In this document: positions 2-20,928 of the stretch, one piece after another
Layout of the letters: each line of letters begins with the position of its first letter
Numbering within the stretch: the stretch's first letter is position 1
IMG/VR virus record: IMGVR_UViG_3300020201_000102
Span: 1-22,290 of that record
Reading direction: 5' to 3' (one strand)
Length of the DNA stretch: 22,290 bases
DNA from: a virus
Notes under the pieces: generated by a model
The model's input: only the letters and a program-made list of their open reading frames with translations
Databases searched by the model: none
Told to the model about the DNA's origin: nothing
Program-made: the position numbers and the translations under genes

Positions 2-2083
2 GGCCACGATGATGGTACTACGACTGCGAACGGAATGAACGCTGCCGGCGGCCTCACGGCGATTCAGGCGATTAGCGACGTCTCCGCCTCTCTCGGAAAG
101 GCTCTGGCCGTTCTCCACCACACTGGAACACTCGCCGCCCTGACGATCACTGGTGTCGCGCTCGACGCCAACAACTTCGTCGTCAAGCTGACCGGCTCGT
201 CTGGTGTGATCTTCGCCGCCACTGCCTCCTTCAGCAAGAACTCCTCGAATTACATTGAGAAGGTCCTCAATACAGATCCGACAAAGTTCACCACGTACGG
301 ACACTACCTCTACCAGAACTTCAGCTACGCCGTTCCAGCGACCTCGGCCTCTTGGTCAGCGGTAGGAATCAGTGGTTCGACGACAGCTTTCACCAGGAAC
401 TTCGAAGGTGGTCTTACAGCCTGGGTCAAGTCTCAGCCGATCGGTGGAATGGAATTCAACCTCTTCCGGTTCCACACCCTCTCGCACGGAAAGGCGACAA
501 ACGACGACATCAAGGTGATGGTCGCCAACGTTAAGCCCTCCCCGTCGCCACTGGCTACCGCCTATGGCACGTTCGATCTGGTCGTCCGTCGGTTCTCCGA
601 CACAGATCAGAAAGTGATCACCCTCGAGACCTTCGTGGGTTGTAACCTTGATCCTTCCTCCAAGAACTTCCTTCCACGCAAGGTCGGAGAGGTCAACGAG
701 GTCTTCGACACGGCCCAGCGAAAGTTCGTCGTCCAGGGAAACTTCCCCAACAAGTCCAAGCACATTCGTGTCGAGCTTGATACCGCAGCCAATGCTCCGG
801 CCGAGGCTCTTCCATGGGGTCACCGTGGTTACGAGAAGGAGCTCTTCACTGGCCCTCTCGCCGACGTTCCTGACATGGTGCTGACGATCAACCAATTCGA
901 TCGGAACGGAAACCTCGATCCGAACATCTCGTTCGGAATTTCCTTCGTGTCTGGTGGTATCGACGACAGGATGAAGGCGTTCCCGAACAACACTCAGACC
1001 CTGCGCGGAGCTGATGCCGACTTCTCGCTCGCCTTCCTCACCTCTTCCTACTTCAACGGGAAGCAGGTCTGGTCGTACAACCCGGCCGTTCCCGCTTCAC
1101 AGCAACACCAGGCCGTCTTTGCCTCGGCCTCGCTCTACCGGTTCAATCTACCGATGATCGGTGGGTTCGACGGATTTGACATCCGCGTAGCAGACTCCCT
1201 CTACCTGACCAACGTGGCAGATGACACAGACATCGGCGTCGTTTCTGCTAAGCGAGCCCTGGATACAGTCGCTAACCCTGACGCGTTCGATATGAACATC
1301 CTGGCGGTTCCTGGAGTCCACAATCTCAAGGTCACAGACAAGGCTCGCTCGGTCGTTAACGATCGTCGGGACACCATGTACGTTATGGACGTCACCGGAT
1401 CGACCGTTGCCGAAGTCATCGGTCAGCTCTCCTCCCGGGAACTGGACGACAACTACTCAGCCTGCTACTACCCTGATCTGAAGCTGAATGACAGGACGAA
1501 CAATAAGATCATCAGGGTCGCCCCGTCGATAGCCATTCTCGGAGCGATCGCATTTAGCGACCGTGTCGGGCAAGTCTTCTTCGCACCGGCCGGTCTCAAC
1601 CGCGGTGGTCTCGGACAGTTCGACATCATTGACGTCGTCGATCGCCTGACTTTCAGCGAGCGGAATGACCTGTACGACAGCAGGATCAATCCGATCGCCA
1701 CATTCCCGAACGAAGGGATCGTGGTCTTCGGACAGAAGACACTCCAGGCGCTGCCGTCTGCCCTTGATCGGATTAACGTCCGTCGGCTCCTCATCTTCGC
1801 CAAGAAGACGATCGCAGCAGCCGCTAAGCTTCTGCTCTTCGAGCCGAACAACCCCCAGACCTGGCAGCGGTTCCTGAACGCAGTCAACCCGATCCTGGAG
1901 AAGATCCGCCAAGACCAGGGAATCAACCGGTTCAAGGTTGTCATGGACACCTCGACGAACACCAACGACTTGATCGACCGGAACATCATGACTGGAAAGA
2001 TCTTCCTGGAGCCGACCAAGAGCGCTGAATTCATCGACCTCTCGTTCATCATCACGAACGCAGGCGTTAGCTTCGGCGAGTAA
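2..2083 (+). CDS. Contractile tail sheath protein (T4 gp18-like); probably 5'-truncated by the window edge
   Basis: The reading frame is open from nt 2 and the first ATG is at 35. The C-terminal half carries sheath-like blocks: NILAVPG, YYPDLKLND, APSIAILGAIAFSDRVGQVFFAPAGLNRGGL, RINPIATFPNEGIVVFGQKTL and INVRRLLIFAKK...FEPNN..TWQRF. It ends in TAA. The visible N-terminus lacks the usual sheath N-terminal block, which suggests the gene starts upstream of the window. Confidence 0.9.
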   Translation, partial: GHDDGTTTANGMNAAGGLTAIQAISDVSASLGKALAVLHHTGTLAALTITGVALDANNFVVKLTGSSGVIFAATASFSKNSSNYIEKVLNTDPTKFTTYGHYLYQNFSYAVPATSASWSAVGISGSTTAFTRNFEGGLTAWVKSQPIGGMEFNLFRFHTLSHGKATNDDIKVMVANVKPSPSPLATAYGTFDLVVRRFSDTDQKVITLETFVGCNLDPSSKNFLPRKVGEVNEVFDTAQRKFVVQGNFPNKSKHIRVELDTAANAPAEALPWGHRGYEKELFTGPLADVPDMVLTINQFDRNGNLDPNISFGISFVSGGIDDRMKAFPNNTQTLRGADADFSLAFLTSSYFNGKQVWSYNPAVPASQQHQAVFASASLYRFNLPMIGGFDGFDIRVADSLYLTNVADDTDIGVVSAKRALDTVANPDAFDMNILAVPGVHNLKVTDKARSVVNDRRDTMYVMDVTGSTVAEVIGQLSSRELDDNYSACYYPDLKLNDRTNNKIIRVAPSIAILGAIAFSDRVGQVFFAPAGLNRGGLGQFDIIDVVDRLTFSERNDLYDSRINPIATFPNEGIVVFGQKTLQALPSALDRINVRRLLIFAKKTIAAAAKLLLFEPNNPQTWQRFLNAVNPILEKIRQDQGINRFKVVMDTSTNTNDLIDRNIMTGKIFLEPTKSAEFIDLSFIITNAGVSFGE

Positions 2084-2165
2084 CGGAAAAGTCTAGTTGT
2101 GACAGTTTCAAAGATGGTGGCCGACATTGGCTATCCTTACAGCATGAGAGGGGAGAGAAAACAAA

Positions 2166-3185
2166 ATGCCTATTCATTCAATAAACGTGGATCCACAGAA
2201 CGTAACTGGATCTGTATCCCTCTCTGAAGCTGCTGACGTAAACGTATCAAATTTCCCGGCAACTCAAAACGTCCTGGCGCTGTCGGGATCAGTGGCCGGT
2301 CTCCTCGTGGGTGGGCAGCCAGTTTCATCTGCCAATCCTATTCCGATCTCAGGTTCGATTGGAGTGTCATTCGTAGATCAATACTCTGGTGGCGTCAGCG
2401 GTTCAATTCCTGTCTCGGCCTCTCTAGCGGGCTTTAGAGATCCTGGTGGTCTCCTCAAATACGCGAATGTAGATAATTTCGGCAACCAGATCATTACTGG
2501 CTCTGTAGGTATTAGTGGCGTTGTCAACGTATCCGTCATTAGCTCCTCGCATGCCGGAGGACTGAGCGGAAGTCTGCCGGTATCTGCATCGCTGGCAGGA
2601 TTCATCGGCGCAGATGGTACACTTCAAGCTGCCCATGTAGATGCATTTGGTAATCTGATTGTTACTGGTTCTGTCGGAATTGCTGGTGTAGTTAATGTCA
2701 CAGGTTCTACTTCGACGATCGTAACGAACGTCGTAACGATCACCGGAAGCGTCAACATTGACGGCGTCAGTACTGTCTCTGGTGCCCTTCAGGTAACTGG
2801 TTCTGTAATCTCTCAGCAGGGTACTACGCCGTGGATTGTATCTGGCTCTAACTGGATCCCGACAGTAACAGGTTCGATCGTTGTAACCAACAAGGTTGAC
2901 ACGAAGATCACTGCGCTCTCAGCCTCAGTATCATTTGTATCGGCAAGTGCAGGCGCCAGCGTCATACTCGTTTCGGCAAATCCGAATAGACTAGGTATTA
3001 CTCTGTACAATGATACGAATAAGAATGTCTATGTAAAGTTGGGGGTTTCTGCTTCTCTCAATGACTATACGACGCAACTCGCAAAAGACGACTATTACGA
3101 GATCCCGTTTGGATACCAGGGAAGGATTGATTCGTTCTCTGCGGTTTCCGTTACTGGCGTGGTTAGGATTACAGAGATCTCGTAA
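2166..3185 (+). CDS. Repeat-rich fibre-like virion protein with a C-terminal ~85-aa conserved domain
   Basis: ATG follows a purine-rich SD (gagaggggagag). The protein is Gly/Ser/Val-rich with (V/I)TGSVG and NFPATQNV motifs and an internal ~56-aa tandem duplication. It shares the blocks GLLVGGQPVSS.NPIPI.GS.G and QGT.PW..SGSNWIPT.TGS with the next gene. The C-terminal domain (aa ~255-339) is paralogous to 5755..6201 and 6783..7073. Confidence 0.8.
   Translation: MPIHSINVDPQNVTGSVSLSEAADVNVSNFPATQNVLALSGSVAGLLVGGQPVSSANPIPISGSIGVSFVDQYSGGVSGSIPVSASLAGFRDPGGLLKYANVDNFGNQIITGSVGISGVVNVSVISSSHAGGLSGSLPVSASLAGFIGADGTLQAAHVDAFGNLIVTGSVGIAGVVNVTGSTSTIVTNVVTITGSVNIDGVSTVSGALQVTGSVISQQGTTPWIVSGSNWIPTVTGSIVVTNKVDTKITALSASVSFVSASAGASVILVSANPNRLGITLYNDTNKNVYVKLGVSASLNDYTTQLAKDDYYEIPFGYQGRIDSFSAVSVTGVVRITEIS
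2388..2714 (+). repeat. In-frame tandem duplication (~168 nt / 56 aa, 2 copies) inside the fibre-like gene
   Basis: Copy 1 reads GGVSGSIPVSASLAGFRDPGGLLKYANVDNFGNQIITGSVGISGVVNVS. Copy 2 reads GGLSGSLPVSASLAGFIGADGTLQAAHVDAFGNLIVTGSVGIAGVVNVT. Confidence 0.8.
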
Positions 3186-3197
3186 AGAAACGGGTGA

Positions 3198-3380
3198 ATG
3201 ATGAGTCGCGGGAATGGACCGAGATCAGTAATCTATGATTCCGATGGTGACATTCCGCTGATCGGACAGCAGGCATCCAGTGGTTCACTTCCTGTAACAA
3301 TAGCGAATGATCAGACACCCGTTCCAGTAACGGGTTCAGTACTGACTATTTCGGGATCTGTAACGACAGTCGTCACTTGA
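3198..3380 (+). CDS. N-terminal segment (60 codons) of a fibre-like protein, ending at an in-frame TGA
   Basis: ATGATG start follows GGGTGA. It is in the same frame (mod 3 = 0) as 3456..4643. Its motif SSGSLPVTIANDQTPVPV recurs as TSASIPVVIASDQSNLKI in the downstream ORF. Its end, VLTISGSV, aligns with VLALSGSV of the paralogue 2166..3185. Confidence 0.55.
   Translation: MMSRGNGPRSVIYDSDGDIPLIGQQASSGSLPVTIANDQTPVPVTGSVLTISGSVTTVVT
3378..3380 (+). other. In-frame TGA interrupting a homology block (candidate readthrough site, split gene or nonsense mutation)
   Basis: The 25 codons after the TGA (SVIGLLVGGQPVSSLNPIPITGSVG) contain no ATG or GTG, yet they match GLLVGGQPVSSANPIPISGSIG of the paralogue at both protein and DNA level. 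Confidence 0.6.
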
Positions 3381-3455
3381 TCTGTCATTGGTCTCCTTGT
3401 CGGTGGACAGCCAGTTTCGTCACTGAATCCTATTCCGATCACGGGAAGTGTTGGG

Positions 3456-4643
3456 TTGAGTGGTCCCGTCGCCATCTCAAACTTCCCAGTAATTCAAACA
3501 ATCACTGGATCAGTAGGTCTCAGCGGTCCGATTACTGGAACAGTCGGGCTATCAGGTCCAGTTGCTGTCTCGAACTTCCCCGCGACGCAGAGTGTCACCC
3601 AGGGAACTTCCCCGTGGGTAATTTCAGGGTCAAACTGGATTCCAACCATAACAGGTTCTGTGGGTCTCAGTGGTCCTGTAACTATTTCTAACTTTCCGTC
3701 TGTGCAGACAGTCACAGGCTCCGTTGGAATCGAGGCTCCTATCTCGATCGGACAGTGGTTAGGATCTTCAACTCCGACAGTCGGACAGAAGGCAACGTCA
3801 GCGTCAATTCCAGTTGTGATCGCGTCTGATCAGTCAAATCTTAAAATCATAGGGGCGCATGTTACCGGTACGCAAGGTACTACAAATCCAGTATTGATTG
3901 GTGGCGTAACAACATCTGGCGACGTACAATATTTAAATCTTGATTCAAATGGAAATATTGGCGTTGTCATCGCAGCTAATCAACAAGCGCTTCCGCTTAT
4001 TATTAACATGAACTTCGAAAAGTCTGATGGGGCAATTCTGGAAAACGCGTATAAGCGTGTGATGGAGTACACTGTCCCTGCTGGTTTTAACGGATGGCTG
4101 ATTAGGTTCAGTTCGTTTCAGAACGAAGATTCAAAGTCGCGAATTGTTTCCGTGAAAAAACTTGGATCGTACAATGTCTTAACTGGTGTATACACATTTG
4201 ATGAATCATACGAGTATCCGCAGTGGAGTGGCGTCGCTGAAGCTGAAGTAACGACGGCCTTCAGCTCTGCCGGAGCATCCGTCGTGATTACTGTGACGTA
4301 TACGAACGAGAAAAGCGTGGCGGGACGTATCGGAACGTTCTCCATTCCAAAGAGTTCGATAGTTGGTAGTCGCTTCCGATTTACGTTTCAAAGCGGAGAT
4401 CTTGGACTCACTTCAATCCAGAGTATCACAGATAATTCTCCGAATACTGGCGTTGTCGATATTCTTGGCAATATCCAGCTTGCTTATCACAACGACATCT
4501 CTAATAAGAATCAGCTTGAGACAAACTATCAACCTGGCGCCATCGCATTTCCGTCCGGAACACTATTGGCAGTTGAGTACTCCGGCGGTACGGTGTCTAA
4601 GGATAGATTGTTCGACTTACTTATACAGTTGGTGACCCCATGA
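3456..4643 (+). CDS. Fibre-like or receptor-binding-like virion protein; coding signal actually begins at 3381
   Basis: The ORF-track start is a TTG. The N-terminal part has SGPV..SNFP..Q.VTGSVG repeats and QGTSPWVISGSNWIPTITGS. The C-terminal ~250 aa is a non-repetitive beta-rich region. The TGA stop overlaps the next ATG (ATGA). Confidence 0.8.
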   Translation: MSGPVAISNFPVIQTITGSVGLSGPITGTVGLSGPVAVSNFPATQSVTQGTSPWVISGSNWIPTITGSVGLSGPVTISNFPSVQTVTGSVGIEAPISIGQWLGSSTPTVGQKATSASIPVVIASDQSNLKIIGAHVTGTQGTTNPVLIGGVTTSGDVQYLNLDSNGNIGVVIAANQQALPLIINMNFEKSDGAILENAYKRVMEYTVPAGFNGWLIRFSSFQNEDSKSRIVSVKKLGSYNVLTGVYTFDESYEYPQWSGVAEAEVTTAFSSAGASVVITVTYTNEKSVAGRIGTFSIPKSSIVGSRFRFTFQSGDLGLTSIQSITDNSPNTGVVDILGNIQLAYHNDISNKNQLETNYQPGAIAFPSGTLLAVEYSGGTVSKDRLFDLLIQLVTP

Positions 4644-5728
4644 CGATTAGGATAAATGACGGCGTCATCATTGATATGACGTCGACTGGTTGGGACGAGT
4701 TCAAAAAGTGGATCAATGGTACAAACGCGAATTTGCGATTCGTGTGGGAAGATGAGGGACAGTCATATAACATTGTCGCCATTGACGGTTCAGTGTACAG
4801 AACTTTTGGAATCAACAAGGAAGATGCGTCTGAGTTTGAAGCGGTATACAAATCTATTGTCACGACAATTCAATCATCTAACATAGATGGCAGACAACGT
4901 GTGACTGCGGAAAAGTCCAACATACCCAAGAAAACGTTCATATCTCACGACTGGACAGACAAGACGACATGGACCGAAGCCTCAGCACGCATTGTTGACG
5001 AAGTGGCTAGCGGTTCAGGTAATGGACTGAACTATTCACTGTCGTTTATTGATATCATCGATACGTACCACGGCAAGATTACGCATGAAGATTACCTCAC
5101 AGATGGAAGCAACAGCTACAGAGTTGTCGTAAAGGTAAACGGTGTTCCCAAAGCAGAACAAGATCCTCATGTCGGCGCGGGTGGTGACTACGTTGTAAAT
5201 TACAATTCTGGTACGATCACGTTTAATTCTCAGCTAAGTGGAAGTGATCAGGTACAGGTGACGTATCATCATGCGTCCAGTAGTATCTTCACTATAAGAC
5301 CAGATTCTGGCAATGTTATTCGATTAGACTTCGCCGAAGTACAATTTTCGAGCAACGTGATAGTAAAAGATAGCGTTATTTTCCAACCATACGGTTTTGT
5401 CGATGTCTTTGCTCCGCAATTGCTCACGACAAATGGCGGACCACTGCCGCCAGGAACAAAGATACCTCTCGGAAATCCAGTAAAGTACAAGACTATGAGA
5501 GACTACCAGAACGAAGCTGTTAAGTCGTATCCTGCATACGACGCAATTGGTGGTTCTGGATGGAGAGGAACGCCATTTGGCGTCGTCGTTTTAGATTGGG
5601 ATTACGTTTCAAGTACGGTCCTTAAATCAAGCTGCGGAATGGAAATTCGCATTTATCTTGAACATAATGAGCCTTTTGGAGGTAGCTACGCAACCGCTAC
5701 GTTCTATTGTACATCGGAAAAAGAATGA
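4640..5728 (+). CDS. Hypothetical protein, probably virion or fibre-associated by context
   Basis: A 362-aa ORF whose start overlaps the upstream stop (ATGA). It shares the low-GC, A/T-ending codon style of 2166-4643. I recognised no motif. Confidence 0.75.
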   Translation: MTIRINDGVIIDMTSTGWDEFKKWINGTNANLRFVWEDEGQSYNIVAIDGSVYRTFGINKEDASEFEAVYKSIVTTIQSSNIDGRQRVTAEKSNIPKKTFISHDWTDKTTWTEASARIVDEVASGSGNGLNYSLSFIDIIDTYHGKITHEDYLTDGSNSYRVVVKVNGVPKAEQDPHVGAGGDYVVNYNSGTITFNSQLSGSDQVQVTYHHASSSIFTIRPDSGNVIRLDFAEVQFSSNVIVKDSVIFQPYGFVDVFAPQLLTTNGGPLPPGTKIPLGNPVKYKTMRDYQNEAVKSYPAYDAIGGSGWRGTPFGVVVLDWDYVSSTVLKSSCGMEIRIYLEHNEPFGGSYATATFYCTSEKE

Positions 5729-5754
5729 ATTGTTTGGAGGTGAAAGGATAATCA

Positions 5755-6201
5755 ATGTCATGGTTCGCGGACTCGATGATCAACCGACCTCCACGGTCGG
5801 ACGAAATCGGGCTGATAGTCAGGCCAATCTTCTCTGGTTCCGACCCCGGGGTGCTAACGGTTCAGTTCGCGTCAGGCGCATTCAATCTAGGCGCCATCTC
5901 CGGATCGTTTTCCACACCGCAGCCGAATACTGGCGACCTTCAAGCAATCCCGAATTCCACGTCGGCAGTCATCATCGCCAGTGGAAACTTGACCAGGATG
6001 GGACTGACGATCTTCAACGAATCTACTGGAACCCTTTACCTCCGTTGCGGCACCGGGGCTGCCACCAATATGTTCACAGTGAAGCTCTCTGCACAGGACT
6101 TCTGGGAGCTGCAGCCTCCGACCTATACGGGTGTCGTGACTGGTCTCTGGAACGTCTCGGATCCAGCTGGAAACGCCCTCGTCACTGAGTTCACCCCTTG
6201 A
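5755..6201 (+). CDS. Hypothetical protein carrying the shared ~85-aa C-terminal domain
   Basis: ATG follows GGAGGTGAAAGG. Residues ~66-148 (VIIASGNLTRMGLTIFNESTGTLYLRCGTGAA..FTVKL..QDFWEL.PPTYTGVVTGLW) align with the C-terminus of 2166..3185 and with 6783..7073. Confidence 0.8.
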   Translation: MSWFADSMINRPPRSDEIGLIVRPIFSGSDPGVLTVQFASGAFNLGAISGSFSTPQPNTGDLQAIPNSTSAVIIASGNLTRMGLTIFNESTGTLYLRCGTGAATNMFTVKLSAQDFWELQPPTYTGVVTGLWNVSDPAGNALVTEFTP

Positions 6202-6725
6202 TCGATGTCACCGGCGACCTCCGCCCGTTCTTCCAGAGGTTGCTGGCTGAGTCACTCCGAGACCTCAAGATGACTGTGGAGCCTTCCGTCGAAGTCTACA
6301 TTGTCTTCCTCCTCGACGAGATGGGCAAGGTCCCGTACGAAGAGGAACCTCTAGGAGTGAGGATGCTCCAGAGCGCGTACCAAGAGAGAACTATCGTCCT
6401 AAAAGATGTCGGCGACCGGTCCCTCTTCGTCTCCGGCTTCTTCGAGGAGAGGATGAAGAAGAGAGGGATCTCCTCTTCCTACTATGCAGGTCTGAGCTCC
6501 TCTGCATACTCAGAATTGTCCCGCAGGTATCCGGATCCATACGGCTTCCTAGCTACCAACGTAGTCCTCCTCCAGAGGGCGCTGAGGGGTGTCAGAGAGG
6601 CCTGCGACGCGTTGGGGTTGGATGCCTGGTCTGTCCACCAGGCCTGGCTCCAGAACAGGTCTCCGGCTCTTGAACGTCGCATGGCTAGACTTGGTATGTT
6701 CGTCCTTCCGGACGGAGAAGCCTGA
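6198..6725 (+). CDS. Hypothetical, predicted helical protein; start uncertain (TTG 6198 or ATG 6270)
   Basis: A 175-codon open frame with a high-GC codon style. TTG 6198 overlaps the upstream TGA. Neither candidate start has a clear SD. No motif recognised. Confidence 0.65.
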   Translation: MIDVTGDLRPFFQRLLAESLRDLKMTVEPSVEVYIVFLLDEMGKVPYEEEPLGVRMLQSAYQERTIVLKDVGDRSLFVSGFFEERMKKRGISSSYYAGLSSSAYSELSRRYPDPYGFLATNVVLLQRALRGVREACDALGLDAWSVHQAWLQNRSPALERRMARLGMFVLPDGEA

Positions 6726-6782
6726 AAGTCTGGCCCAAAGCTCTGGTTCGCCTCTAATTCTATATGAACTTGGAGGAAGATT

Positions 6783-7073
6783 ATGCCCGCTGATATGCTA
6801 TATGCGAACTCGGTGTCTGGATCGTCGATCGCCGCTTCGGCCACGACTGTCACCCTGCTTACACCCAATCCAGAACGAAATTCATTCTGGATCTTCAATA
6901 ACTCGTCTTCCGAGCTCTACGTGAAGATTGGGGCATCCGCCTCATTGACGGATTTTTCTTTCAAGATGCTATCCGGAAGCTTCCAGCTGATCCCTCCTCC
7001 GTGCCCGATCGTGCAAGTCACAGGCATCTGGGTTGTAGCGGTCGGGAATGCGAAGGTCACGAGCATCGACTGA
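6783..7073 (+). CDS. Small stand-alone copy of the shared ~85-aa domain
   Basis: ATG follows GGAGGAAG. The sequence TVTLLTPNPERNSFWIFNNSSSELYVKIGASASLTDFSFKML...VTGIWVV aligns across its whole length with the other two copies. Confidence 0.75.
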   Translation: MPADMLYANSVSGSSIAASATTVTLLTPNPERNSFWIFNNSSSELYVKIGASASLTDFSFKMLSGSFQLIPPPCPIVQVTGIWVVAVGNAKVTSID

Positions 7074-7080
7074 GGCTTCG

Positions 7081-7120
7081 TAGAGGTACAACTGGCGAAC
7101 GCACTTATCGAGTACCTCTA
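7081..7120 (+). promoter_or_regulatory. Perfect 9-bp inverted repeat (TAGAGGTAC...GTACCTCTA, 22-nt spacer) in the 153-bp gap upstream of the tube gene
   Basis: Read directly from the sequence. No U-tract follows it. An 8-bp palindrome, TTCTAGAA, lies at 7140-7147. Confidence 0.25.
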
Positions 7121-7226
7121 GAACCGAGCGACCCACGAAATTCTAGAAATGAGACCCAAAAGGAATCTTCCCGATACTTAGAACTGGGTCGGTGTGATTC
7201 AGGTCCAGAAATGAGGAGAAAAGAAA

Positions 7227-7718
7227 ATGCCAGCTGAAACGCTTGAAGTTGCACAGTTGCTCGCGAATACATACGAGCCGAAGAGGAAGTTCCGCTGGAT
7301 CCTACAGATCGATGGCCTCGACGCCTTCGTCATGAAGACCACGGCCCGCCCGCAGGCCACCTTTGAAGAGACGGTGGTCGACTACGTTAACGCCAAGCGC
7401 TACCTGGCTGGCAAGATGGCGTGGAATCCGATGGCTGTCACCATGCACGATCCTGTCGCCCCTTCGGCAGCTCAGAAGGTCATGGACTGGCTTCGCCTCA
7501 ACTACGAGCCTCTCACTGGCCGCATGGGCTACGCCTCCTTCTACAAGAAGGATTTCACCCTCAAGCTCCTGGATCCGCAGGGAACTGTTGTCGAGTTCTG
7601 GGACATCAAAGGTGGTTGGCCGCAGGACATCAACTGGGGAGACCTGGACTACGCCTCGAGCGACAACGCCGAGATCGCGTTCACCCTCCGCTTCGACAAC
7701 GCCACCCTCCAGTACTAA
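7227..7718 (+). CDS. Tail tube protein (T4 gp19-like)
   Basis: It is 163 aa, the same length as T4 gp19. The C-terminal block DIKGGWPQDINWGDLDYASSDNAEIAFTLRFDNA parallels the gp19 block IKGLWPTNVGELQLDWDSNNEIQTFEVTLALDYW. The SD is GAGGAGAAAAG. Confidence 0.9.
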   Translation: MPAETLEVAQLLANTYEPKRKFRWILQIDGLDAFVMKTTARPQATFEETVVDYVNAKRYLAGKMAWNPMAVTMHDPVAPSAAQKVMDWLRLNYEPLTGRMGYASFYKKDFTLKLLDPQGTVVEFWDIKGGWPQDINWGDLDYASSDNAEIAFTLRFDNATLQY

Positions 7719-7728
7719 GAGGTAGCAC

Positions 7729-7956
7729 GTGCCACTCCTCACGGAAGTATTCATCCTCAAAGAAGCCGTGGAACAGCCGAACGCGGCTGTTGAGAAGCTT
7801 CTGAGCAGTGGTGCCGTCAACAGCTTTACCCCTGAAGATTGGTTGGCCCTGGGCATCGCTGCCCTGGACCAGGCTGGACTTCCCGCTTCTGCCACCGCCG
7901 CCATCGAGAAGATGGCGCAGAAGAGCATGCCAATGGCACCTGGAACTGGAATATGA
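7729..7956 (+). CDS. Hypothetical small helical protein
   Basis: GTG start follows AAGAGGT, 10 nt after the tube gene stop. The product is 75 aa and Ala/Leu-rich. Confidence 0.55.
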   Translation: MPLLTEVFILKEAVEQPNAAVEKLLSSGAVNSFTPEDWLALGIAALDQAGLPASATAAIEKMAQKSMPMAPGTGI

Positions 7957-13345: not shown

Positions 13346-15481
13346 ATGGCTCATGAAGTAGAACTACTCGGTAAGTTCCTCGGCACTCGGGCGAAGAATC
13401 CCGACACTGCCGCTTCTCCGTATGACCCGGTCAAAGAGAGTCCACTTGAGCTGGACCTGCCGAACCACGACCTTACCTTCTCCAAGCCTGCCCCATTGCC
13501 ACCTCCACCCAAGGTGGAACTGAGCGCACCGAGCGCCCTCCCGCCTCCTCCAGCGGTGGTCCTAGACCCGATCGATCCCATCCCGGATCCTCCAAAGGTG
13601 ATCCTCTCCGTTCCGGCGGTCCTTCCGCCGGAACCACCGCCGCCAGCTTCCATCCCAGGGATCCTTCCGCCTCCTCCGGCGACCGTCAATATTCTGCCGA
13701 CTCCGCTTCCACCACCGCCGGCGACCGTCAATCTCTTGCCGCATGCGTTGCCACCACCGCCGGCGACCACGAATCTTCTGCCTCACGCGTTGCCACCTCC
13801 TCCGGCGACCGTCAATCTTCTGCCTCACGTACTTCCCCCGCCGCCGGCGACCGTGCGGAGCATCCCCGGACTGCTTCCTCCGCTCCCGTTGACTACAAAG
13901 TCGATTCCGGCCGCGCTTCCTCCTCCTCCAGCGTTCGTGATTCCTCCTTCGAATCAAATCATCATGCCGAAGCCTGCGCCACCGGGTCCACCGCCGTTCG
14001 TAGAACCTCCAGACTTTGAGGTGAAGTACGGACCACTCGACAACAAGCTTGACTGCACTCCTCAGGAAGCTCCAGATCCGAAGCTGGTCAATCCACTGGC
14101 GACACCGAATTCTGGTTACTCTATCCTGGGAGAGACGTACTCTCCACTTCTTGGAGCGGCAGATCCAGGTACGCTCTCTGGCGATCCATTCATGTACGCC
14201 CGCCAGGTGGAACGCCAGCTCCGCATCAGTCCAGGCAAGATCACCCTCCACGCACTCACACAAGTAGGTCTCTTCGCCCAGAACGTCTACGGTACCGTCT
14301 GGAATCCAGCGTTGATGGCTCCCCCTCCGGGAAGCAGTGAGTTTCTTCTGCCGGCTCTGGACCTCGGCGGTGGTGGTATCGGGGCGTTCGACAAGACGAA
14401 CAAGGACAACCAGGAAGGGAAGACAGAGGAGCGCCAAGTCCAGATCGGCGAACTCGTTGATGCCGTCCTTGACAAGACGTTTGAAAAGGGGAACACCACT
14501 GGCAAGAACCTCGTGGGACCGAATCCGGGGTACGGTCCGAACAACGATGCCATCGCCCGCATCGCTCCGAGGCAGAGTCTCTCGCGAGGACTTTCTGCGG
14601 CCTTCGACAATGTCGCCGCAACCATCAGTTCAGTCGCCAAGAACGGTCTGAATCCTCCAAAGTCAAAGGAAGACCTGCTCAAGAAATGGGGGATGGCATT
14701 CGAGAATGGTGTCATGCCGATGCGTCTACGTGGAGATAATAAGTTCGGTTTCCGGACGTTCCAGGGTGGTCCAGGTGGAGGGCCGGGGGATGAGACGTCT
14801 CCAGATTCAGTGTACCTGCCTCTTTGCTTTACGGACCTCCGTCCCGTCGGGAATGTCTACAGGACAGTGTACTTCAGACCGATAATCACGAGCCTGACAG
14901 AAGGTCTTGCTCCTGAGTGGAACAAGGCGCAGTACTACGGACGTGTCGATCCTGTCGCTACGTATATGTCGACCACGCGCACGATCAACATGAGCTTTGA
15001 GCTACACGCGTTTGGTCCAGAAGATGTGAGGACTATTTATCAGAAGCTGCACTGGCTTTCTTCGATGGTATACCCTGAGTACGACAACAATCTTGTGTAC
15101 AAGTCTGGACCGGTCGTTCGTATGCGAGTCGGTGATCTTGTCAACGCTGTCGGTCCCGAGGGTGGACGTGGTTTACCCGGGATCATCGAGAGTCTCGACT
15201 ACGATTACTCAGAGTCACTCTGGGAACTCAAAGAAAACTACAAGCTTCCTCGACAGGTCAAGGTCACTCTTACGTTCACCGTCCTGCACGATCTCCCAAT
15301 CGGCCGTGGAGCTGAGGGAAGGTTTGGCGGTATGGGTCTGATCAATAGCGATGGATTGTACGAGGCTAACCAGATTGATGGTGAGGTCCTTGTTGATTCG
15401 ACGGCCTTCCGGCAGTTCGGCACGGGTGCACCTGTTCGATACAACACTCTGGCTAAAGCCAAAGACGAGACAGAGGAGTAA
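13346..15481 (+). CDS. Baseplate or tube-junction protein (possibly T4 gp48/gp54-like tube cap or initiator) with an N-terminal proline-rich repeat extension
   Basis: The SD is GAGGAT and the product is 711 aa. The C-terminal ~250 aa reads YLPLCFTDLRPVG..VYFRPIITSLTEGLAPEWNKAQYYGRVDPVATYMSTTRTINMSFELHAF..EDVRTIYQKLHWLSSMVYPEY...GPVVRMRVGDL. That resembles the tube-fold cap or initiator pattern as I recall it. The position directly after the tape measure fits this role. Confidence 0.45.
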   Translation: MAHEVELLGKFLGTRAKNPDTAASPYDPVKESPLELDLPNHDLTFSKPAPLPPPPKVELSAPSALPPPPAVVLDPIDPIPDPPKVILSVPAVLPPEPPPPASIPGILPPPPATVNILPTPLPPPPATVNLLPHALPPPPATTNLLPHALPPPPATVNLLPHVLPPPPATVRSIPGLLPPLPLTTKSIPAALPPPPAFVIPPSNQIIMPKPAPPGPPPFVEPPDFEVKYGPLDNKLDCTPQEAPDPKLVNPLATPNSGYSILGETYSPLLGAADPGTLSGDPFMYARQVERQLRISPGKITLHALTQVGLFAQNVYGTVWNPALMAPPPGSSEFLLPALDLGGGGIGAFDKTNKDNQEGKTEERQVQIGELVDAVLDKTFEKGNTTGKNLVGPNPGYGPNNDAIARIAPRQSLSRGLSAAFDNVAATISSVAKNGLNPPKSKEDLLKKWGMAFENGVMPMRLRGDNKFGFRTFQGGPGGGPGDETSPDSVYLPLCFTDLRPVGNVYRTVYFRPIITSLTEGLAPEWNKAQYYGRVDPVATYMSTTRTINMSFELHAFGPEDVRTIYQKLHWLSSMVYPEYDNNLVYKSGPVVRMRVGDLVNAVGPEGGRGLPGIIESLDYDYSESLWELKENYKLPRQVKVTLTFTVLHDLPIGRGAEGRFGGMGLINSDGLYEANQIDGEVLVDSTAFRQFGTGAPVRYNTLAKAKDETEE
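13487..13945 (+). repeat. Degenerate in-frame 42-bp (14-aa) tandem repeats encoding LPPPPATVNLLPHA-type units
   Basis: About 10 units: PLPPPPKVELSAPSA / LPPPPAVVLDP.. / ILPPPPATVNILPTP / LPPPPATVNLLPHA / LPPPPATTNLLPHA / LPPPPATVNLLPHV / LPPPPATVRSIPGL / LPPLPLTTKSIPAA / LPPPPAFVIPP. Confidence 0.85.
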
Positions 15482-15484
15482 TCG

Positions 15485-15799
15485 ATGGCTAAGAGTCGCC
15501 ACAGCGATACTGGATTGGTCGATGGGAAGCACTACAAGAGCTTCATCCTTCCCAAGGCGGCCGCGGGATTAAAGAATGTCGACCTCCTCCAAGGGGTCAA
15601 GACGACTGAGTACGTCTACAAGGCTGCCGATCGACTTGACCATGTTGCTGCCAAGTTTCTCGGTGATGATCAATACTGGTGGGTGATCGCCCTCGTCAAC
15701 GGAATCAACTATCCATTCGCGTCTGGTGGTCTGGTACCAGGACGTGTGCTTAGGATCCCTGTCTTTGTGAAGGACGTCCTTGATAAGCTGTTGGGGTGA
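15485..15799 (+). CDS. LysM-like tail or baseplate protein (P2 gpX / T4 gp53 LysM type)
   Basis: YVYKAADRLDHVAAKFLGDDQYWWVIALVNGINYPFASGGLVPGRVLRIP fits the LysM/gpX pattern Y.V..GD.LD.IA....G....W..I...N......L..G..L.IP. The SD is GAGGAG. Confidence 0.75.
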   Translation: MAKSRHSDTGLVDGKHYKSFILPKAAAGLKNVDLLQGVKTTEYVYKAADRLDHVAAKFLGDDQYWWVIALVNGINYPFASGGLVPGRVLRIPVFVKDVLDKLLG

Positions 15800-15802
15800 T
15801 GC

Positions 15803-17563
15803 ATGCCTTACGAAAATCCAGAACATTTTCAGGTTCAGGGGAAGGATGATAAGCCGTTCGCGCTCGTCTCTCAGGCGGCCGTTGAACTTCTTGAAGGGAT
15901 CCTTCCGGCTGAGAAGGCTCAGTCTGTCCCGTACATCTTGATCTGGCAGATCGATCCGTCGACAGGGAAAGCCAAAAACAGTCCATTGTCCAATGGGTAT
16001 TCCGAATTCCCCCTCAGCCTTGCATACGTCGAGCCACCGAAATTCGGAGCACAAGTGGGTGCCGAATTCAGGTTCCGGGAGCGTCCCCCAGTGTCGCTGG
16101 AACGCATCTCTATCAAGTCACAGAACCCACGTGGACTGATCATGTACCGGTTGGTAGAACTCAACTTCACGGTCCACCGTCCCGACGTTGTCTTTGGCGA
16201 ACCAGCAGTTGACGGACATGATGCTTGGTCTTCCCTAGTCAACCTCGGTACAGTACACGCGCTTGAATACGGTTGGTCATCATCCCAAGGAGTCAAGAAC
16301 GGTATTCTGAATGGTGAGGGATTCTCCGATCCCAACAAGGATGTTGCCATCACCGGAAGACAACAGGTCAGATTCGTCGTGACGAGCTATACGTTTACCA
16401 TCCAACCGGACAATCAGATCAAGTTCGTCATCAAGGGATTTGAAGATGGTGAGTTCAACTTGCGTCAGGCAGAGATCGCGAAGAACCCGGCCACCGATGC
16501 TCAGAAGAAAGAATCTGGGAAGATAAAGATCAAAGAGAAGACCGATCCAAACTCCTACGACGGAAAGCCAATTAAGGATTTGATAAAGAAGCTTCAGGAC
16601 GACGTGGCCGGAAACGCCACTAATGACAGGAAAAAAGGTGGTAAGGTCGTGTTCTTTGGAAAGCTCTTCGACGTCGTCTTTGCTAAGAAGATCGAAGAGG
16701 CGTACAAAGAGTTGGGCTATGAGCTTGAAGGAATCTTCATGGGGAGATTCAACGGTCGCTGCGGCACTCCGGCTCCGAAGTATGGTTCGACCAGCATGAA
16801 GGACGCTCCTATCTCAGACTTTACGTTCCCGCTTGACGACATAGAGAAACACTTTCGGGAACTCATCAAAGCTGGAGCTCAGTTGACGCTTCATAACTTC
16901 ATTAACTCGTTCCTTCGTTTGTTCGAACAGCAACACGTCTGGGACAGGAAGGATGGAAAGAACGACAAGGACACGACCGTCCCTCAGATCCACATGCGAA
17001 GTATCCAACGTCGGGACCGCGGTGGCAAGTTGAAGGTGTCGTTTCATATTTTCGATGCGACCAGAGAGTTTACCAAGTTTACCAAGGACGATTCTCAAAA
17101 GCTTCCGAAGGAGAACCAGACCAGGGCAAACATTAAGAAGATCGTTCAAGACAAGGGAATCCCGTTCGTCTCTCTTGTACGCGCCAACTCGTTTGTCAAA
17201 GACTGTAACTTCGACACAGTGATGGATGAGCAGCAGGCCGGTATTCTCATGCGTCGGGCTCTGACCGAATCTTCGACACGGCAGGCAAAGGTTGAGAACG
17301 CCGACCTGGCATCAAAGGAGAATAGGCTCGTCGGGGCTGTACAACTCTTCTCCCCCGTCATCAACGGGAATATCACGATGATTGGGAACTTCGTCTTTGA
17401 TGTCTTCGCCCTCATTTGGATAGAGTTTGGAGTCAGGCAGTGGGATGGTCCTTTCAACATCGCCGAGAAGGAAGACCTCATCACGCGTGGTGATTTCACC
17501 ACGACTCTCAAGCTTTACTCCGCCGGTACTGACCCACTCGGGACCAAGGCGTCCAAGAAGTAA
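15803..17563 (+). CDS. Large virion protein; candidate baseplate hub (gp27/gpD-like) by position only
   Basis: A 586-aa ORF that starts 4 nt after the LysM gene. Tape measure, tube initiator, LysM, hub is the order seen in other contractile-tail modules. I recognised no diagnostic motif. Confidence 0.35.
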   Translation: MPYENPEHFQVQGKDDKPFALVSQAAVELLEGILPAEKAQSVPYILIWQIDPSTGKAKNSPLSNGYSEFPLSLAYVEPPKFGAQVGAEFRFRERPPVSLERISIKSQNPRGLIMYRLVELNFTVHRPDVVFGEPAVDGHDAWSSLVNLGTVHALEYGWSSSQGVKNGILNGEGFSDPNKDVAITGRQQVRFVVTSYTFTIQPDNQIKFVIKGFEDGEFNLRQAEIAKNPATDAQKKESGKIKIKEKTDPNSYDGKPIKDLIKKLQDDVAGNATNDRKKGGKVVFFGKLFDVVFAKKIEEAYKELGYELEGIFMGRFNGRCGTPAPKYGSTSMKDAPISDFTFPLDDIEKHFRELIKAGAQLTLHNFINSFLRLFEQQHVWDRKDGKNDKDTTVPQIHMRSIQRRDRGGKLKVSFHIFDATREFTKFTKDDSQKLPKENQTRANIKKIVQDKGIPFVSLVRANSFVKDCNFDTVMDEQQAGILMRRALTESSTRQAKVENADLASKENRLVGAVQLFSPVINGNITMIGNFVFDVFALIWIEFGVRQWDGPFNIAEKEDLITRGDFTTTLKLYSAGTDPLGTKASKK

Positions 17564-17596: not shown

Positions 17597-18976
17597 ATGT
17601 ACAAATTCATCGATGGGTACCTCGATCGCTCCCATCATTACGAGATCTTTCAGGACGGAATCGTTACTTCTGGCAAACATGATCCTCTTATCCGAGTTAG
17701 AGTTCCGGAACGTATAGTCTGTTTCGATTCACGGAAGATCTTCGCTCTCGGTGTAGAACAGGACTCTCTTTACCCTAGTCCTGTATACGACATTAAGCTA
17801 CTATACAGCCACGATGGAGAGCTCTCTCGCCTGGTTCGTAGCATCGATATCCCGATCCGTGGGGATTACCTTGAGCTGGAGAAACGCTTCTCTGCGCACA
17901 CCAAGGCCATTGTTGCAGGTAAGGTGGATGTGGAGACGATCCCACTCCGAGAGTTGATCCCTGATGATCTTCGCCACGAGTATATGTACGCTCGACTCTC
18001 GGCGATGAGACAGCTTTGGGAGAGGTTGACCGAGAAGGACTTGGTCAACTACGAAAAGAATGTGTATCCGATCTACCAGGACATTCTCATCATCGAGAAA
18101 GCTGGGATAAAGATCGACGAGACGTATGTCGCCTCACAGCTTAAGAGGAATGACTTGGCCTCTCATGAGGACAGTTTTTTCAAGAACATTATTGGAAACA
18201 CGAAGAACGGCTTCGCGAAGACGAAGATAAGTCCAGTCGGTTCGAAGACTTGGCGGCTTCGTGTGGAGGGTGGATTCAATTGCATGGCGATCCCACATGG
18301 CGTATGCCGCAAGGCGATCGTTAGCAGGTTCGATGGAGGTACAATCACTACATTTGATTTCAATGCTATTGACTACCGTTGTCTGGTAAGGGCGACAGGC
18401 GATGACAAGTTGAACGAATTCTACGGTGGGTGCCGAGACTTTCACACTCGGACCGCGTCAATCCTGGGGGAAGTGACGCCAGAACTGCGAGTGTCAACAA
18501 AGAAGATCGCCTACACACACATCTACGGTGGATCGACCGAGACCCTCCAGAAACAGACGCTTCTTCCCAGAGCAGTCCTCGCCGAACGAATACAGAAACT
18601 AGACGTGCTGTTCGCCCCAATCACCGACTTCAGGAAGCGCTTGAGCGACCAATCGAGGATCGACGGCTTCCTCATCACTCCTGGCGGTCACGTCGTGAAG
18701 ATTGAGAAGGGAGACCACGATGGCAAGATCATCGGACTTTTCGGCCAGACATACAGTTCGTCAATCTTCAATGTGGCGGTGAAGGTTGTCAACAACATTT
18801 TGAAGATTAGGAATAGACAGAGTCGGATAATCTTCACTGTGCACGATGAGATCGTGCTTGATCTCCACCCTGACGAACGGGAGCTATTGAAAAATCTGGC
18901 AGATGCAATGGAAGTGGCGACAGGATTCGTGGTCAAGGAAAAGGAAGGGAAAAGCTATGGCGAAGCAACCGACTGA
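17597..18976 (+). CDS. Family-A (Pol I-like) DNA polymerase, polymerase domain only, with no recognisable 3'-5' exonuclease motifs
   Basis: Motif A is TTFDFNAIDYRCLV (canonical DYSQIELR). Motif B is RVSTKKIAYTHIYGG, with R...K...Y...YG spacing. Motif C is IIFTVHDEIVLD. Also present are TWRLRVEGGFNCMAIP (canonical TGRLS..PNLQNIP), IIEKAGIKIDETY (canonical ME..G..VD) and DFHTRTA (canonical DIH..TA). The product is only 459 aa. Confidence 0.85.
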   Translation: MYKFIDGYLDRSHHYEIFQDGIVTSGKHDPLIRVRVPERIVCFDSRKIFALGVEQDSLYPSPVYDIKLLYSHDGELSRLVRSIDIPIRGDYLELEKRFSAHTKAIVAGKVDVETIPLRELIPDDLRHEYMYARLSAMRQLWERLTEKDLVNYEKNVYPIYQDILIIEKAGIKIDETYVASQLKRNDLASHEDSFFKNIIGNTKNGFAKTKISPVGSKTWRLRVEGGFNCMAIPHGVCRKAIVSRFDGGTITTFDFNAIDYRCLVRATGDDKLNEFYGGCRDFHTRTASILGEVTPELRVSTKKIAYTHIYGGSTETLQKQTLLPRAVLAERIQKLDVLFAPITDFRKRLSDQSRIDGFLITPGGHVVKIEKGDHDGKIIGLFGQTYSSSIFNVAVKVVNNILKIRNRQSRIIFTVHDEIVLDLHPDERELLKNLADAMEVATGFVVKEKEGKSYGEATD

Positions 18977-19627: not shown

Positions 19628-20137
19628 ATGAAAATCAAGAGATCAGTTTTGGAGAGAATCATCCGCGAGGAGCTCGCCAATCACATTCACGAGATGATGG
19701 AGGCTGCCCCAAAGGACAAAGAGGACACCGAAGTCGTCGACGCTTCTGCCGAAAAGAAGAGTAAGGAGAAGCCTGGCGGGAAGGGCGAAGAGAACCCGAC
19801 AAAGCCACAAGGCTCCACCGGCGTGAAGCAGCCAGGTGGAAACGTACCTCCGGAAGTTCAGGTGGCTGACGAGCCAGAAGCTGACGATGAGCTCGCGACC
19901 GACGTCGCCACTCCTGACGAAGAGGAAGATCCAGCAGAGATCACCGGAGGCAAAATCTCCGACGAGATCGCTGGTAAGACTATCCAGTCCATCTCTATGG
20001 AACCGAAGTCCAAGCTCCTGCCAGGTGCTATGGAGATCGCCATGACCTTCAGAGAGATCCCGGATCCGCTCAAGATCCTGATCACGAAAACGGGGCAGGT
20101 GAAATTCCATTTCAAATGGCTTCACAACGAGCTCTGA
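19628..20137 (+). CDS. Hypothetical acidic protein with a disordered, charge-rich centre
   Basis: The SD is GGGAG. The protein starts MKIKRSVLERIIREEL, followed by ~90 aa rich in Lys, Glu, Asp, Pro and Gly, then a short folded-looking C-terminus. Its TGA overlaps the next ATG. Confidence 0.7.
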   Translation: MKIKRSVLERIIREELANHIHEMMEAAPKDKEDTEVVDASAEKKSKEKPGGKGEENPTKPQGSTGVKQPGGNVPPEVQVADEPEADDELATDVATPDEEEDPAEITGGKISDEIAGKTIQSISMEPKSKLLPGAMEIAMTFREIPDPLKILITKTGQVKFHFKWLHNEL

Positions 20138-20928
20138 TGCCGTTTAAGTCTGATCAGCAGAGGAAATGGATGTTTGCGAACGATCCCGAGATGGCAAAGC
20201 GTTGGGCAAAAGATGAAGCTGAACGGAACGGCCACGAAGGATTTGAGGTACAGGACGCCTGCCACGATATGGACCCGCTCGACATTCGAGAGATGCCGCA
20301 TCTTCAAGCCGATATAGAAGCGGGTGGCAAAAAGCTGCATATCGTCGATCTTCGGATCGAGCGGTATCCGATCACACAGGTTGAAAAGCAACGGATGATG
20401 CGTGCATTCGCCAAGACGGGACTAGTTGGTGACTTCAACGGGGAACTTCTTCACTTTCGTCCGGACGGTTCGGCTGACGTCATCGACCAATCTGCCGCTG
20501 CGCAACTTCCGAAGTTGCCAAACGGATGGGACAAGATCATGAAGTTTGTCTCTGAGGCTCACGTCGGTAACCGGTTCATTCCTGACGATGACGAACCGAT
20601 GCTAGAGCCGCTAGCTGTCGCCGGAGATGGTCCCAGCATCCTCAAGGTCTTCATCCGGGAGAACGATGGTAGCATCCCGAAGAATCAAGATCTCCCGGAT
20701 CCAAAGAAGGATGGACAGGAGTTCAAGAAGGTCGGCGTGACATATGCGGTTCAGATGGACGAGCCGTTCACGGTCAAGACCATCGAGAACGACACGGCTG
20801 AAGCCAAAGCTGGAGACTTCCTATGTAAGGGACCGAATGGTGACATGTGGCCCGTCGACCAAGAAGTCTTCAAGCAGACCTACAAGCCTGCCTCACCCAA
20901 GCTGGAAAATGTCTTCAAAAGGAAGTGA
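20137..20928 (+). CDS. Hypothetical protein with a DUF3008-like N-terminal motif (KS.QQR.WMFA..PEMAKRWA)
   Basis: ATG 20137 overlaps the upstream stop (TGATG); the ORF-track start at 20116 is less likely. The N-terminus is MPFKSDQQRKWMFANDPEMAKRWAKDEA. The C-terminus contains GDFLCKGPNGDMWPVDQEVFKQTY. Confidence 0.7.
   Translation: MPFKSDQQRKWMFANDPEMAKRWAKDEAERNGHEGFEVQDACHDMDPLDIREMPHLQADIEAGGKKLHIVDLRIERYPITQVEKQRMMRAFAKTGLVGDFNGELLHFRPDGSADVIDQSAAAQLPKLPNGWDKIMKFVSEAHVGNRFIPDDDEPMLEPLAVAGDGPSILKVFIRENDGSIPKNQDLPDPKKDGQEFKKVGVTYAVQMDEPFTVKTIENDTAEAKAGDFLCKGPNGDMWPVDQEVFKQTYKPASPKLENVFKRK

Follow-up and report, generated by a model that had tools for sequence, protein, structure and literature searches.

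Programmed readthrough of a UGA codon in the coat gene of Qbeta yields the minor protein A1, and in that system the UGA is both fixed and essential. Phages in which TAG or TGA has been reassigned in the late genes, often with suppressor tRNAs, have reportedly been described by Ivanova et al. in 2014 and by Borges et al. in 2022. In the laboratory strain lambda PaPa, the side tail fibre gene (stf) carries a frameshift that became fixed during laboratory passage. PMC8594841 mentions the side tail fibre defect of this strain, citing Hendrix & Duda 1992. In the kayvirus host-range mutant 812K1/420, obtained by laboratory selection on resistant hosts, a 77-bp deletion splits a tail-fibre gene (PMC6445280). 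Here we analyse an interrupted gene of a similar kind from an uncultured virus. The stretch of DNA examined (hereafter the window) comprises 22,290 nucleotides (nt), positions 1 to 22,290 of IMG/VR record IMGVR_UViG_3300020201_000102, and contains a fibre-like structural gene (3198..4643, + strand) with a premature in-frame TGA at 3378..3380 (+ strand). Our data make it likely that this TGA is a genuine, recent G-to-T nonsense substitution and one allele of a polymorphism in a near-clonal phage population, in which sister metagenomes hold an intact haplotype (GGA61/TGG300), the haplotype of the window (Gly61 to stop, here the G61 stop) and a third haplotype with a stop at Trp300 (the W300 stop).

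The locus resembles lambda PaPa stf in that an accessory fibre gene of a tailed phage has been divided by a point lesion into two open reading frames (ORFs), the phage is viable and intact alleles are present in close relatives. It differs in that the lesion here is a substitution to TGA that segregates naturally with both an intact and a second nonsense allele, and the two proteins are unrelated in sequence. Like the kayvirus mutant 812K1/420, the window has a premature stop that divides a gene of the tail-fibre complex into two ORFs with few changes from the parent, though the kayvirus change is linked to altered host interaction whereas ours is a single-nucleotide polymorphism (SNP) in environmental metagenomes, seen as sequence alone. 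Qbeta A1 likewise involves an in-frame UGA followed by a long open frame that encodes an extension of a virion protein, but neither sister genomes that are otherwise identical nor orthologues have the UGA described here, which lies in a poor readthrough context and falls at codon 61, not at the end of a complete protein. Finally, the window shares with stop-codon-recoded phages an in-frame stop in a structural gene of a large phage with its own tRNAs; whereas those phages have many in-frame stops in late genes and avoid the recoded codon as a terminator, a single in-frame TGA occurs in the window, where TGA closes 73% of the ORFs.

Translation of positions 3198-4643 in a single frame gave 481 sense codons (480 from the ATG at 3201), with the TGA at codon 61 (3378-3380) as the sole internal stop. 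The frame stays open for 420 codons beyond this stop, and the translation around it reads ...SGSVTTVVT, then the stop, then SVIGLLVGGQPVSSLNPIPITGSVG.... Codon 61 apart, the gene is open from the ATG at 3198 or 3201 to its own terminator, TGA 4641-4643, and its extent is supported by the translation, by an intact allele (protein P0104) and by the orthologues P0002 and P0025. The first-pass annotation of this DNA had proposed that an in-frame TGA splits the fibre-like ORF 3198..4643 with homology continuing on both sides, and the translation and the intact 480-amino-acid (aa) allele bear this out. Its ORF and its stop both stand, and its start at 3198 needs a small correction: gene callers working on the intact allele use the second ATG, at 3201 (MSRGNG...). 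Since the allele with a sense codon at this site encodes a 480-aa protein that is identical on both sides, the open frame is not merely a product of chance.

The 60-codon remnant upstream of the stop (3198..3377, + strand) holds the conserved N-terminal module of the family (MSxGxGPRxVxYDxxGxxPLxGQ) and aligns with the N-termini of P0002 and P0025. Downstream, the ORF list and the sequence agree with the earlier statement that the 25 in-frame codons at 3381-3455 include neither ATG nor GTG. The next listed start is the TTG at 3456, which has a weak Shine-Dalgarno-like GGGAAG 8-13 nt upstream. The ORF that begins there (3456..4643, + strand; 395 codons) appears in the ORF list and equals the Logan gene call P0001 on a TGA-bearing contig; it could be expressed only via re-initiation or internal initiation.

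Alleles were read from the assembly consensus sequences of contigs from sister samples (Logan SRR, JGI and ENA) and compared with the window. The 90%-identity protein cluster of the downstream ORF had six members, one of which was the intact protein P0104 (480 aa), reading ...VTTVVTGSVIGLL... across the site. As expected of a segregating nonsense mutation, the contig that encodes P0104 (L001, Logan SRR6448207) differed from the window only at the stop: over window positions 784-14643 there was one mismatch in 13,860 nt, 3378 T>G, which gives GGA (Gly). Short contigs from SRR6448212 (L004), JGI 3300020057 (L005) and JGI 3300020213 (L006) also carried GGA and were otherwise no different from the window. 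The variable base, 3378, is therefore a T in the window as against a G in the intact allele. The TGA was present in contigs from SRR6448214 (L002/L003), which matched the window at every one of 14,643 nt; they start 5 nt from the window's end, the two starts lying within 5 nt of each other. Two different assemblers thus gave the same T at 3378, in the window and in SRR6448214. On a 187-kb JGI contig this gene was called only as a truncated product of 275 aa, a short call which suggests that the disruption is present there as well. Intact codons at both 61 and 300 were found together on a single contig, L001.

An exact-pattern scan for the SNP in its context returned no matches in IMG/VR and JGI metagenome contigs, collections that do not include these samples. 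Five short contigs from five assemblies (L004-L008) all began within the same 29-nt stretch (2117-2145), between the sheath gene and an upstream paralogue of the fibre-like gene, and ended inside the repetitive part of the fibre-like gene (3300-3870). Their common start suggests a branch in the assembly graph, for example a co-occurring strain with other upstream sequence.

Judged from homologous sequences, TGA at this site is the derived state and replaces a conserved sense codon, since the paralogue, P0002, P0025 and every copy of the surrounding repeat motif carry glycine there. The upstream paralogue (2166..3185, + strand, 339 aa) has two blocks in common with the fibre-like gene, SGSVxGLLVGGQPVSSxNPIPI and QGTxPW(I/V)xSGSNWIPT, and its homologous codon is GGA. 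The first-pass annotation had noted that the paralogue is uninterrupted through the homologous block and resembles the fibre-like gene at the DNA level as well. We found both to be the case: the paralogue reads ...VLALSGSVAGLLVGGQPVSSANPIPISGSIG... and positions 2287-2353 match 3379-3445 at 78% over 67 nt, with a second block (2817-2875 and 3600-3658) matching at 76%. The paralogue itself was 100% identical in seven contigs.

Among the orthologues, for which a sense codon or a conserved TGA had been suggested as a check, both P0002 and P0025 have a sense glycine. P0002 (812 aa, on contig L009) is syntenic and uninterrupted, has GGC at the site, and its N-terminus runs into the GLLVGG block. 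P0025 (497 aa; L019, SRR20217197) is likewise syntenic and continuous over the site, reading MSGGKGPRSVIYDPDGHNPLIGQQASSGSLPV...VTGSTGLLVGGQPVSS, and the N-terminal module and the GLLVGG block therefore belong to one polypeptide. Other homologues have the N-terminal 'YDxxG' motif in common. In the '(S/T)GSVxGLLxGG' repeat, a glycine precedes 'S[VIA]xG[LIV][LIV]xGG' in all 43 motif copies (43/43) from 17 homologous proteins, and the GGA to TGA change destroys this invariant repeat glycine. An ancestral, invariant glycine and a GGA allele in contigs that are identical base for base both support the suggestion, made among other options in the first-pass annotation, that this is a recently split or pseudogenised fibre gene. 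Searches further afield were largely negative: a megablast of 2100-4700 against GenBank phages gave no match, a tblastn of the intact protein against phages gave one weak partial match, and a search of viral contigs for related loci, with the one protein as query, gave nothing.

A second nonsense allele was found in the same gene. The Trp300 codon (4095..4097, + strand), within the confidently folded C-terminal domain, is TGG in the window and TGA (4097 G>A) in sister contigs from JGI 3300020213 (L014/L021), SRR6448211 (L015/L020) and ENA ERZ505514 (L016), the last codons before the stop and the first after it reading ...AGFNG and LIRF.... These contigs were otherwise identical to the window over 3.7-6.0 kb, except for 6250 A>G in L016; in L014/L021 and L015/L020, 4097 G>A was the sole difference over 5.1-6.0 kb. 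JGI 3300020213 also contains GGA at 3378 (L006), and though sites 3378 and 4097 lie on separate contigs and are unphased, this is consistent with a haplotype that has the W300 stop alone. At least three alleles are supported by contigs, namely GGA61/TGG300 (L001), TGA61/TGG300 (the window and L002) and TGA300.

Variation was otherwise sparse. A contig from JGI 3300020057 (L017) has TGG at 4097 and carries 6080 T>C, which is Val109Ala in ORF 5755..6201, and the 6250 A>G of L016 falls between ORFs or, with the TTG at 6198 as start codon, is Glu18Gly. In about 14.6 kb there were thus four variable sites among the sister contigs (3378, 4097, 6080 and 6250), two of them nonsense changes in the fibre-like gene (1.4 kb). 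By comparison, 3.0% of all possible single substitutions in the stretch are nonsense, and 0.37% are nonsense in the fibre-like gene. The probability that at least two of four sites would be nonsense in this gene is P = 8e-5, uncorrected; as the first nonsense change was the reason for flagging the window, the corresponding probability of a further nonsense change in this gene among the remaining three sites is P about 0.01. Two other origins for the changes were considered and rejected. A diversity-generating retroelement would leave adenine-templated clusters and not the single-site G>T and G>A seen here; apart from the paralogue block at 78% identity we saw no template repeat, and there was no reverse transcriptase among the large ORFs scanned. 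Selected loss of a GGATC restriction site was rejected by eye, with other GGATC sites nearby and a synonymous change sufficing to remove one.

In phages carrying the G61 stop, ribosomes would release an N-terminal peptide of 60 aa on reaching codon 61, and translation of the remaining 420 codons would be absent or, through re-initiation at TTG 3456, weak. A product re-initiated there would be without the conserved N-terminal module, so that virions would have little or none of the fibre, and polarity on the downstream genes of the cassette is possible. The W300 stop would cut the folded C-terminal domain mid-way. Through loss of the N-terminal module in one case and truncation of a domain in the other, both alleles should abolish or greatly reduce functional protein. 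The nearest isolated relative does without the cassette to which the gene belongs, so that viability at the plaque level probably does not depend on this protein.

Recurrent nonsense changes, with no other change in the gene, suggest that loss of the fibre is tolerated and, by analogy with the side tail fibres of lambda PaPa, perhaps favoured. Two independent UGA alleles at consensus frequency in different sister samples could reflect adaptive knock-out or down-tuning in situ, an interpretation we offer tentatively and consider less probable than not. A possible cause of adaptive loss is that the fibre binds a decoy (e.g. mat exopolysaccharide) or triggers host defence. At the W300 stop, which has a UGA-C context, readthrough by near-cognate tRNA-Trp would restore the wild-type protein at low dose; if loss is adaptive and the W300 stop is leaky, the population may vary in fibre dosage and not just in presence or absence. 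For annotation, the locus is best treated as one gene with a nonsense SNP, neither two genes nor a recoding site. It offers a small-scale example from nature of how a host-interaction protein is lost repeatedly, a phenomenon known mainly from laboratory phages (lambda PaPa) and host-range mutants, and it makes the family with the '(S/T)GSVxGLLxGG...NPxPxTGS' repeat and beta domain a candidate target of phage-host conflict.

Several points weigh against an interpretation of segregating nonsense alleles. The same reads may underlie both the window and the SRR6448214 contig, and the independent support for the T allele then comes from one library and from the truncated call on the 187-kb contig, where the disruption itself is inferred. 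One of the W300 stop contigs has low coverage (2.4x). Loss of function is predicted from the positions of the stops, and some function could persist through basal readthrough of the UGA or through re-initiation at TTG 3456. The scan for suppressor tRNAs covered the window, out of a genome of about 187 kb. The term 'fibre', finally, is indirect and reflects the arrangement of repeats, the swapped domain, the place of the gene in the tail module and weak matches to fibre-like proteins in BFVD.

The possibly shared reads bear most directly on whether the T at 3378 is an artefact of sequencing or assembly, the true base being G, an explanation that the first-pass annotation had listed as sequencing error and that we consider unlikely. 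Oxidative library damage typically produces G-to-T changes, the gene is internally repetitive with a paralogue 1.1 kb upstream, and several sister assemblies break within it. However, a collapse onto the paralogue would yield G (GGA) and not T, and the same T was produced by two assemblers, within 14.6 kb that show no other error when set against three other samples. The separate 187-kb JGI contig also has no full-length call for this gene, and such alleles do occur here, as is clear from the independent nonsense SNP found in other libraries. If the T is real, the split might still be functional, with the 60-aa peptide and the 395-aa protein from TTG 3456 assembling non-covalently. Re-initiation after nonsense codons is known in bacteria, and GGGAAG is suitably placed before TTG 3456, like AGGAAGTGAT upstream of the gene at 20932. 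Such a two-piece gene is very improbable here: it would lose codons 3381-3455, including the conserved GLLVGGQPVSSxNPIPITGS block, no relative compared has such a split, and the window is one base from the intact allele without any compensatory change. The W300 stop, moreover, cuts within one folded domain and could not be rescued in this way.

Programmed or usefully leaky readthrough, in which most ribosomes would stop at codon 61 while a fixed fraction continued to a 481-aa minor isoform, was another of the options first proposed. UGA is the leakiest stop codon in bacteria, 420 codons are open past the stop with homology across it, and the longest contigs (22 kb and probably 187 kb) carry the TGA haplotype, which is thus evidently viable and probably common. 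A programmed stop would be conserved among relatives, though, and this one is not conserved even within its own population, with GGA in four sister assemblies whose contigs are otherwise identical and glycine in the orthologues and the paralogue. Nor did its surroundings favour leakiness. The context is ACU UGA U, and a U at the +4 position lowers UGA readthrough in bacteria according to PMC5289835. RNA folding of 3360-3460 against shuffled sequences gave z = 0.03, i.e. no unusual structure, and Rfam gave no match near TGA 3378-3380, selenocysteine insertion sequences (SECIS) included. No role is plausible for a 'short isoform' of 60 aa, the residue most likely inserted by readthrough in place of an invariant Gly would be Trp, and the other nonsense allele, at a different site in the gene, fits damage and not design. 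We therefore regard readthrough isoforms as a decidedly poor fit to these data, and for the same lack of an Rfam match and a fold no better than shuffles we rejected a selenocysteine or stimulatory RNA element.

Decoding of UGA as an amino acid, whether under code 4 (Trp) or code 25 (Gly), by late-gene recoding or as selenocysteine, is scarcely credible. Code 25 reads UGA as Gly, which would fit the sense allele GGA, and code 4 reads it as Trp, which would fit TGG at the second site, and the window holds several odd tRNAs; no single reassignment, however, renders both changes synonymous. Reassignment would also be expected to bring many in-frame TGAs and avoidance of TGA as a terminator, whereas one in-frame TGA was found within the 22 ORFs of this 22-kb window and TGA closes 16 of them (73%), with TAA closing five and TAG one, at a G+C content of 52.7%. 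The first-pass annotation had rejected global UGA reassignment, counting 15 other genes that end at TGA, and its count and its conclusion both hold: these genes and the fibre-like gene itself end at TGA with an ATGA overlap, Shine-Dalgarno-plus-ATG restarts and matching C-termini in homologues. For the fibre-like gene, the terminal TGA overlaps the ATG of the next gene (ATGA; 4640..5728, + strand, 362 aa) and about 25 homologues end near the same TGA, some 3 residues or less away from it (...LIQLV followed by 0-5 further residues), from which we conclude that TGA does terminate it. A tRNA with a TCA anticodon was not found among the tRNAs and tRNA-like sequences at 8615-9098 (a search within the 22-kb window), and a suppressor tRNA was rejected, none of the three tRNAs and weak tRNA-like sequences in the window being of this type. 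Selenocysteine would call for a SECIS 3' of the UGA and for Cys in homologues; there was no SECIS-like match, and the ancestral residue is Gly, not Cys.

As a terminator, TGA is unusually frequent in the window. Two further pairs of in-frame ORFs are separated by a TGA and one codon (15485..15799 / 15803..17563 and 20116..20928 / 20932..22122). The TGAs, at 15797 and 20926, sit within Shine-Dalgarno-like sequences of the next gene (GGTGAT and AGTGAT), the next ATG lies 4 nt past the stop, and the tubulin domain of 20932..22122 begins near that protein's own N-terminus. With their own Shine-Dalgarno and ATG, these pairs were judged to be ordinary adjacent coupled genes.

An AlphaFold2 model of the intact sequence has a disordered, repeat-rich N-terminal part of 260 residues, as might be expected when a fibrous shaft is modelled as a monomer, and a confidently predicted, all-beta C-terminal domain. 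When modelled by itself in AlphaFold2, this conserved domain of about 220 aa (3975..4640, + strand) reached a mean predicted local distance difference test (pLDDT) of 94.5 and a predicted template-modelling score (pTM) of 0.87. It is common to most homologues, with 45-67% identity in about 25 metagenomic proteins. A fold search of the domain against the PDB found only weak jelly-roll matches resembling viral capsid proteins (template-modelling score, TM, 0.24 or less), and the model may represent an undescribed fold variant, present in about 25 or more metagenomic proteins. Weak matches in BFVD were to uncharacterised phage proteins (TMt 0.57) and to fibre proteins of collagen, Stf and C1q type; one homologue has the N-terminal domain of the PRD1 P5 spike. 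The fibre-like protein had no match in Pfam or PHROG.

P0025 shares its N-terminal module and repeats with the protein of the window but has an unrelated C-terminal domain, and the tube protein encoded on the same contig (L019) is identical to that of the window. Domain swapping of this type is typical of receptor-binding proteins. The features that speak for a fibre or spike identity are the repeats, the predicted disorder of the shaft as a monomer, the swapped C-terminus of P0025, the position of the gene between sheath and tube, the weak BFVD matches and the spike domain of one homologue; the lack of a Pfam or PHROG match and of a convincing PDB fold speaks against it. From these, the putative label "fibre-like accessory tail protein" appears reasonable, and the N-terminal module is probably the end that attaches to the virion.

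The window belongs to an uncultured T4-like myovirus, with genes for the tail sheath (35..2083), tail tube (7227..7718), baseplate hub (9207..10016), a tape-measure-like protein (10211..13336) and a family A DNA polymerase (17597..18976). By sheath protein, the nearest isolate is Microcystis phage Mel-JY01 (37% identity), in which the tube gene comes immediately after the sheath gene. Because sheath and tube are adjacent there, we interpret the block of about 5 kb at 2166-7073 as a lineage-specific insertion. Its six genes are the two fibre-like paralogues and ORFs of 362, 148, 151 and 96 aa, none of these four having a match in Pfam or PHROG. The distant metagenomic relative L009 has a cassette in the same order (sheath, paralogue, fibre-like gene, at least three small genes, tube), and the cassette of L019 has an extra gene of 578 aa.

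A cluster of tRNAs with irregular anticodon arms lies at 8615-9098 (+ strand). Two were called as Ile(AAT), at 8939-9017 (anticodon loop TGAATAG, without U33) and at 9024-9098. A third, at 8695-8770, scored 44 bits in Rfam, but ARAGORN reported it only once the threshold had been relaxed, calling it Gly(TCC); its anticodon stem contains two mismatches. Weak tRNA-like sequences occur at about 8615-8690 and about 8784-8853, the latter called as Phe(GAA) at the relaxed threshold. Near the end of the window, adjoining the replication genes, is a gene for a TubZ/PhuZ-like tubulin (20932..22122) with Pfam Tubulin and TubZ-like C-terminal domains. Taken with the 187-kb sister contig, this gene would fit a large phage equipped with a cytoskeletal system based on tubulin.

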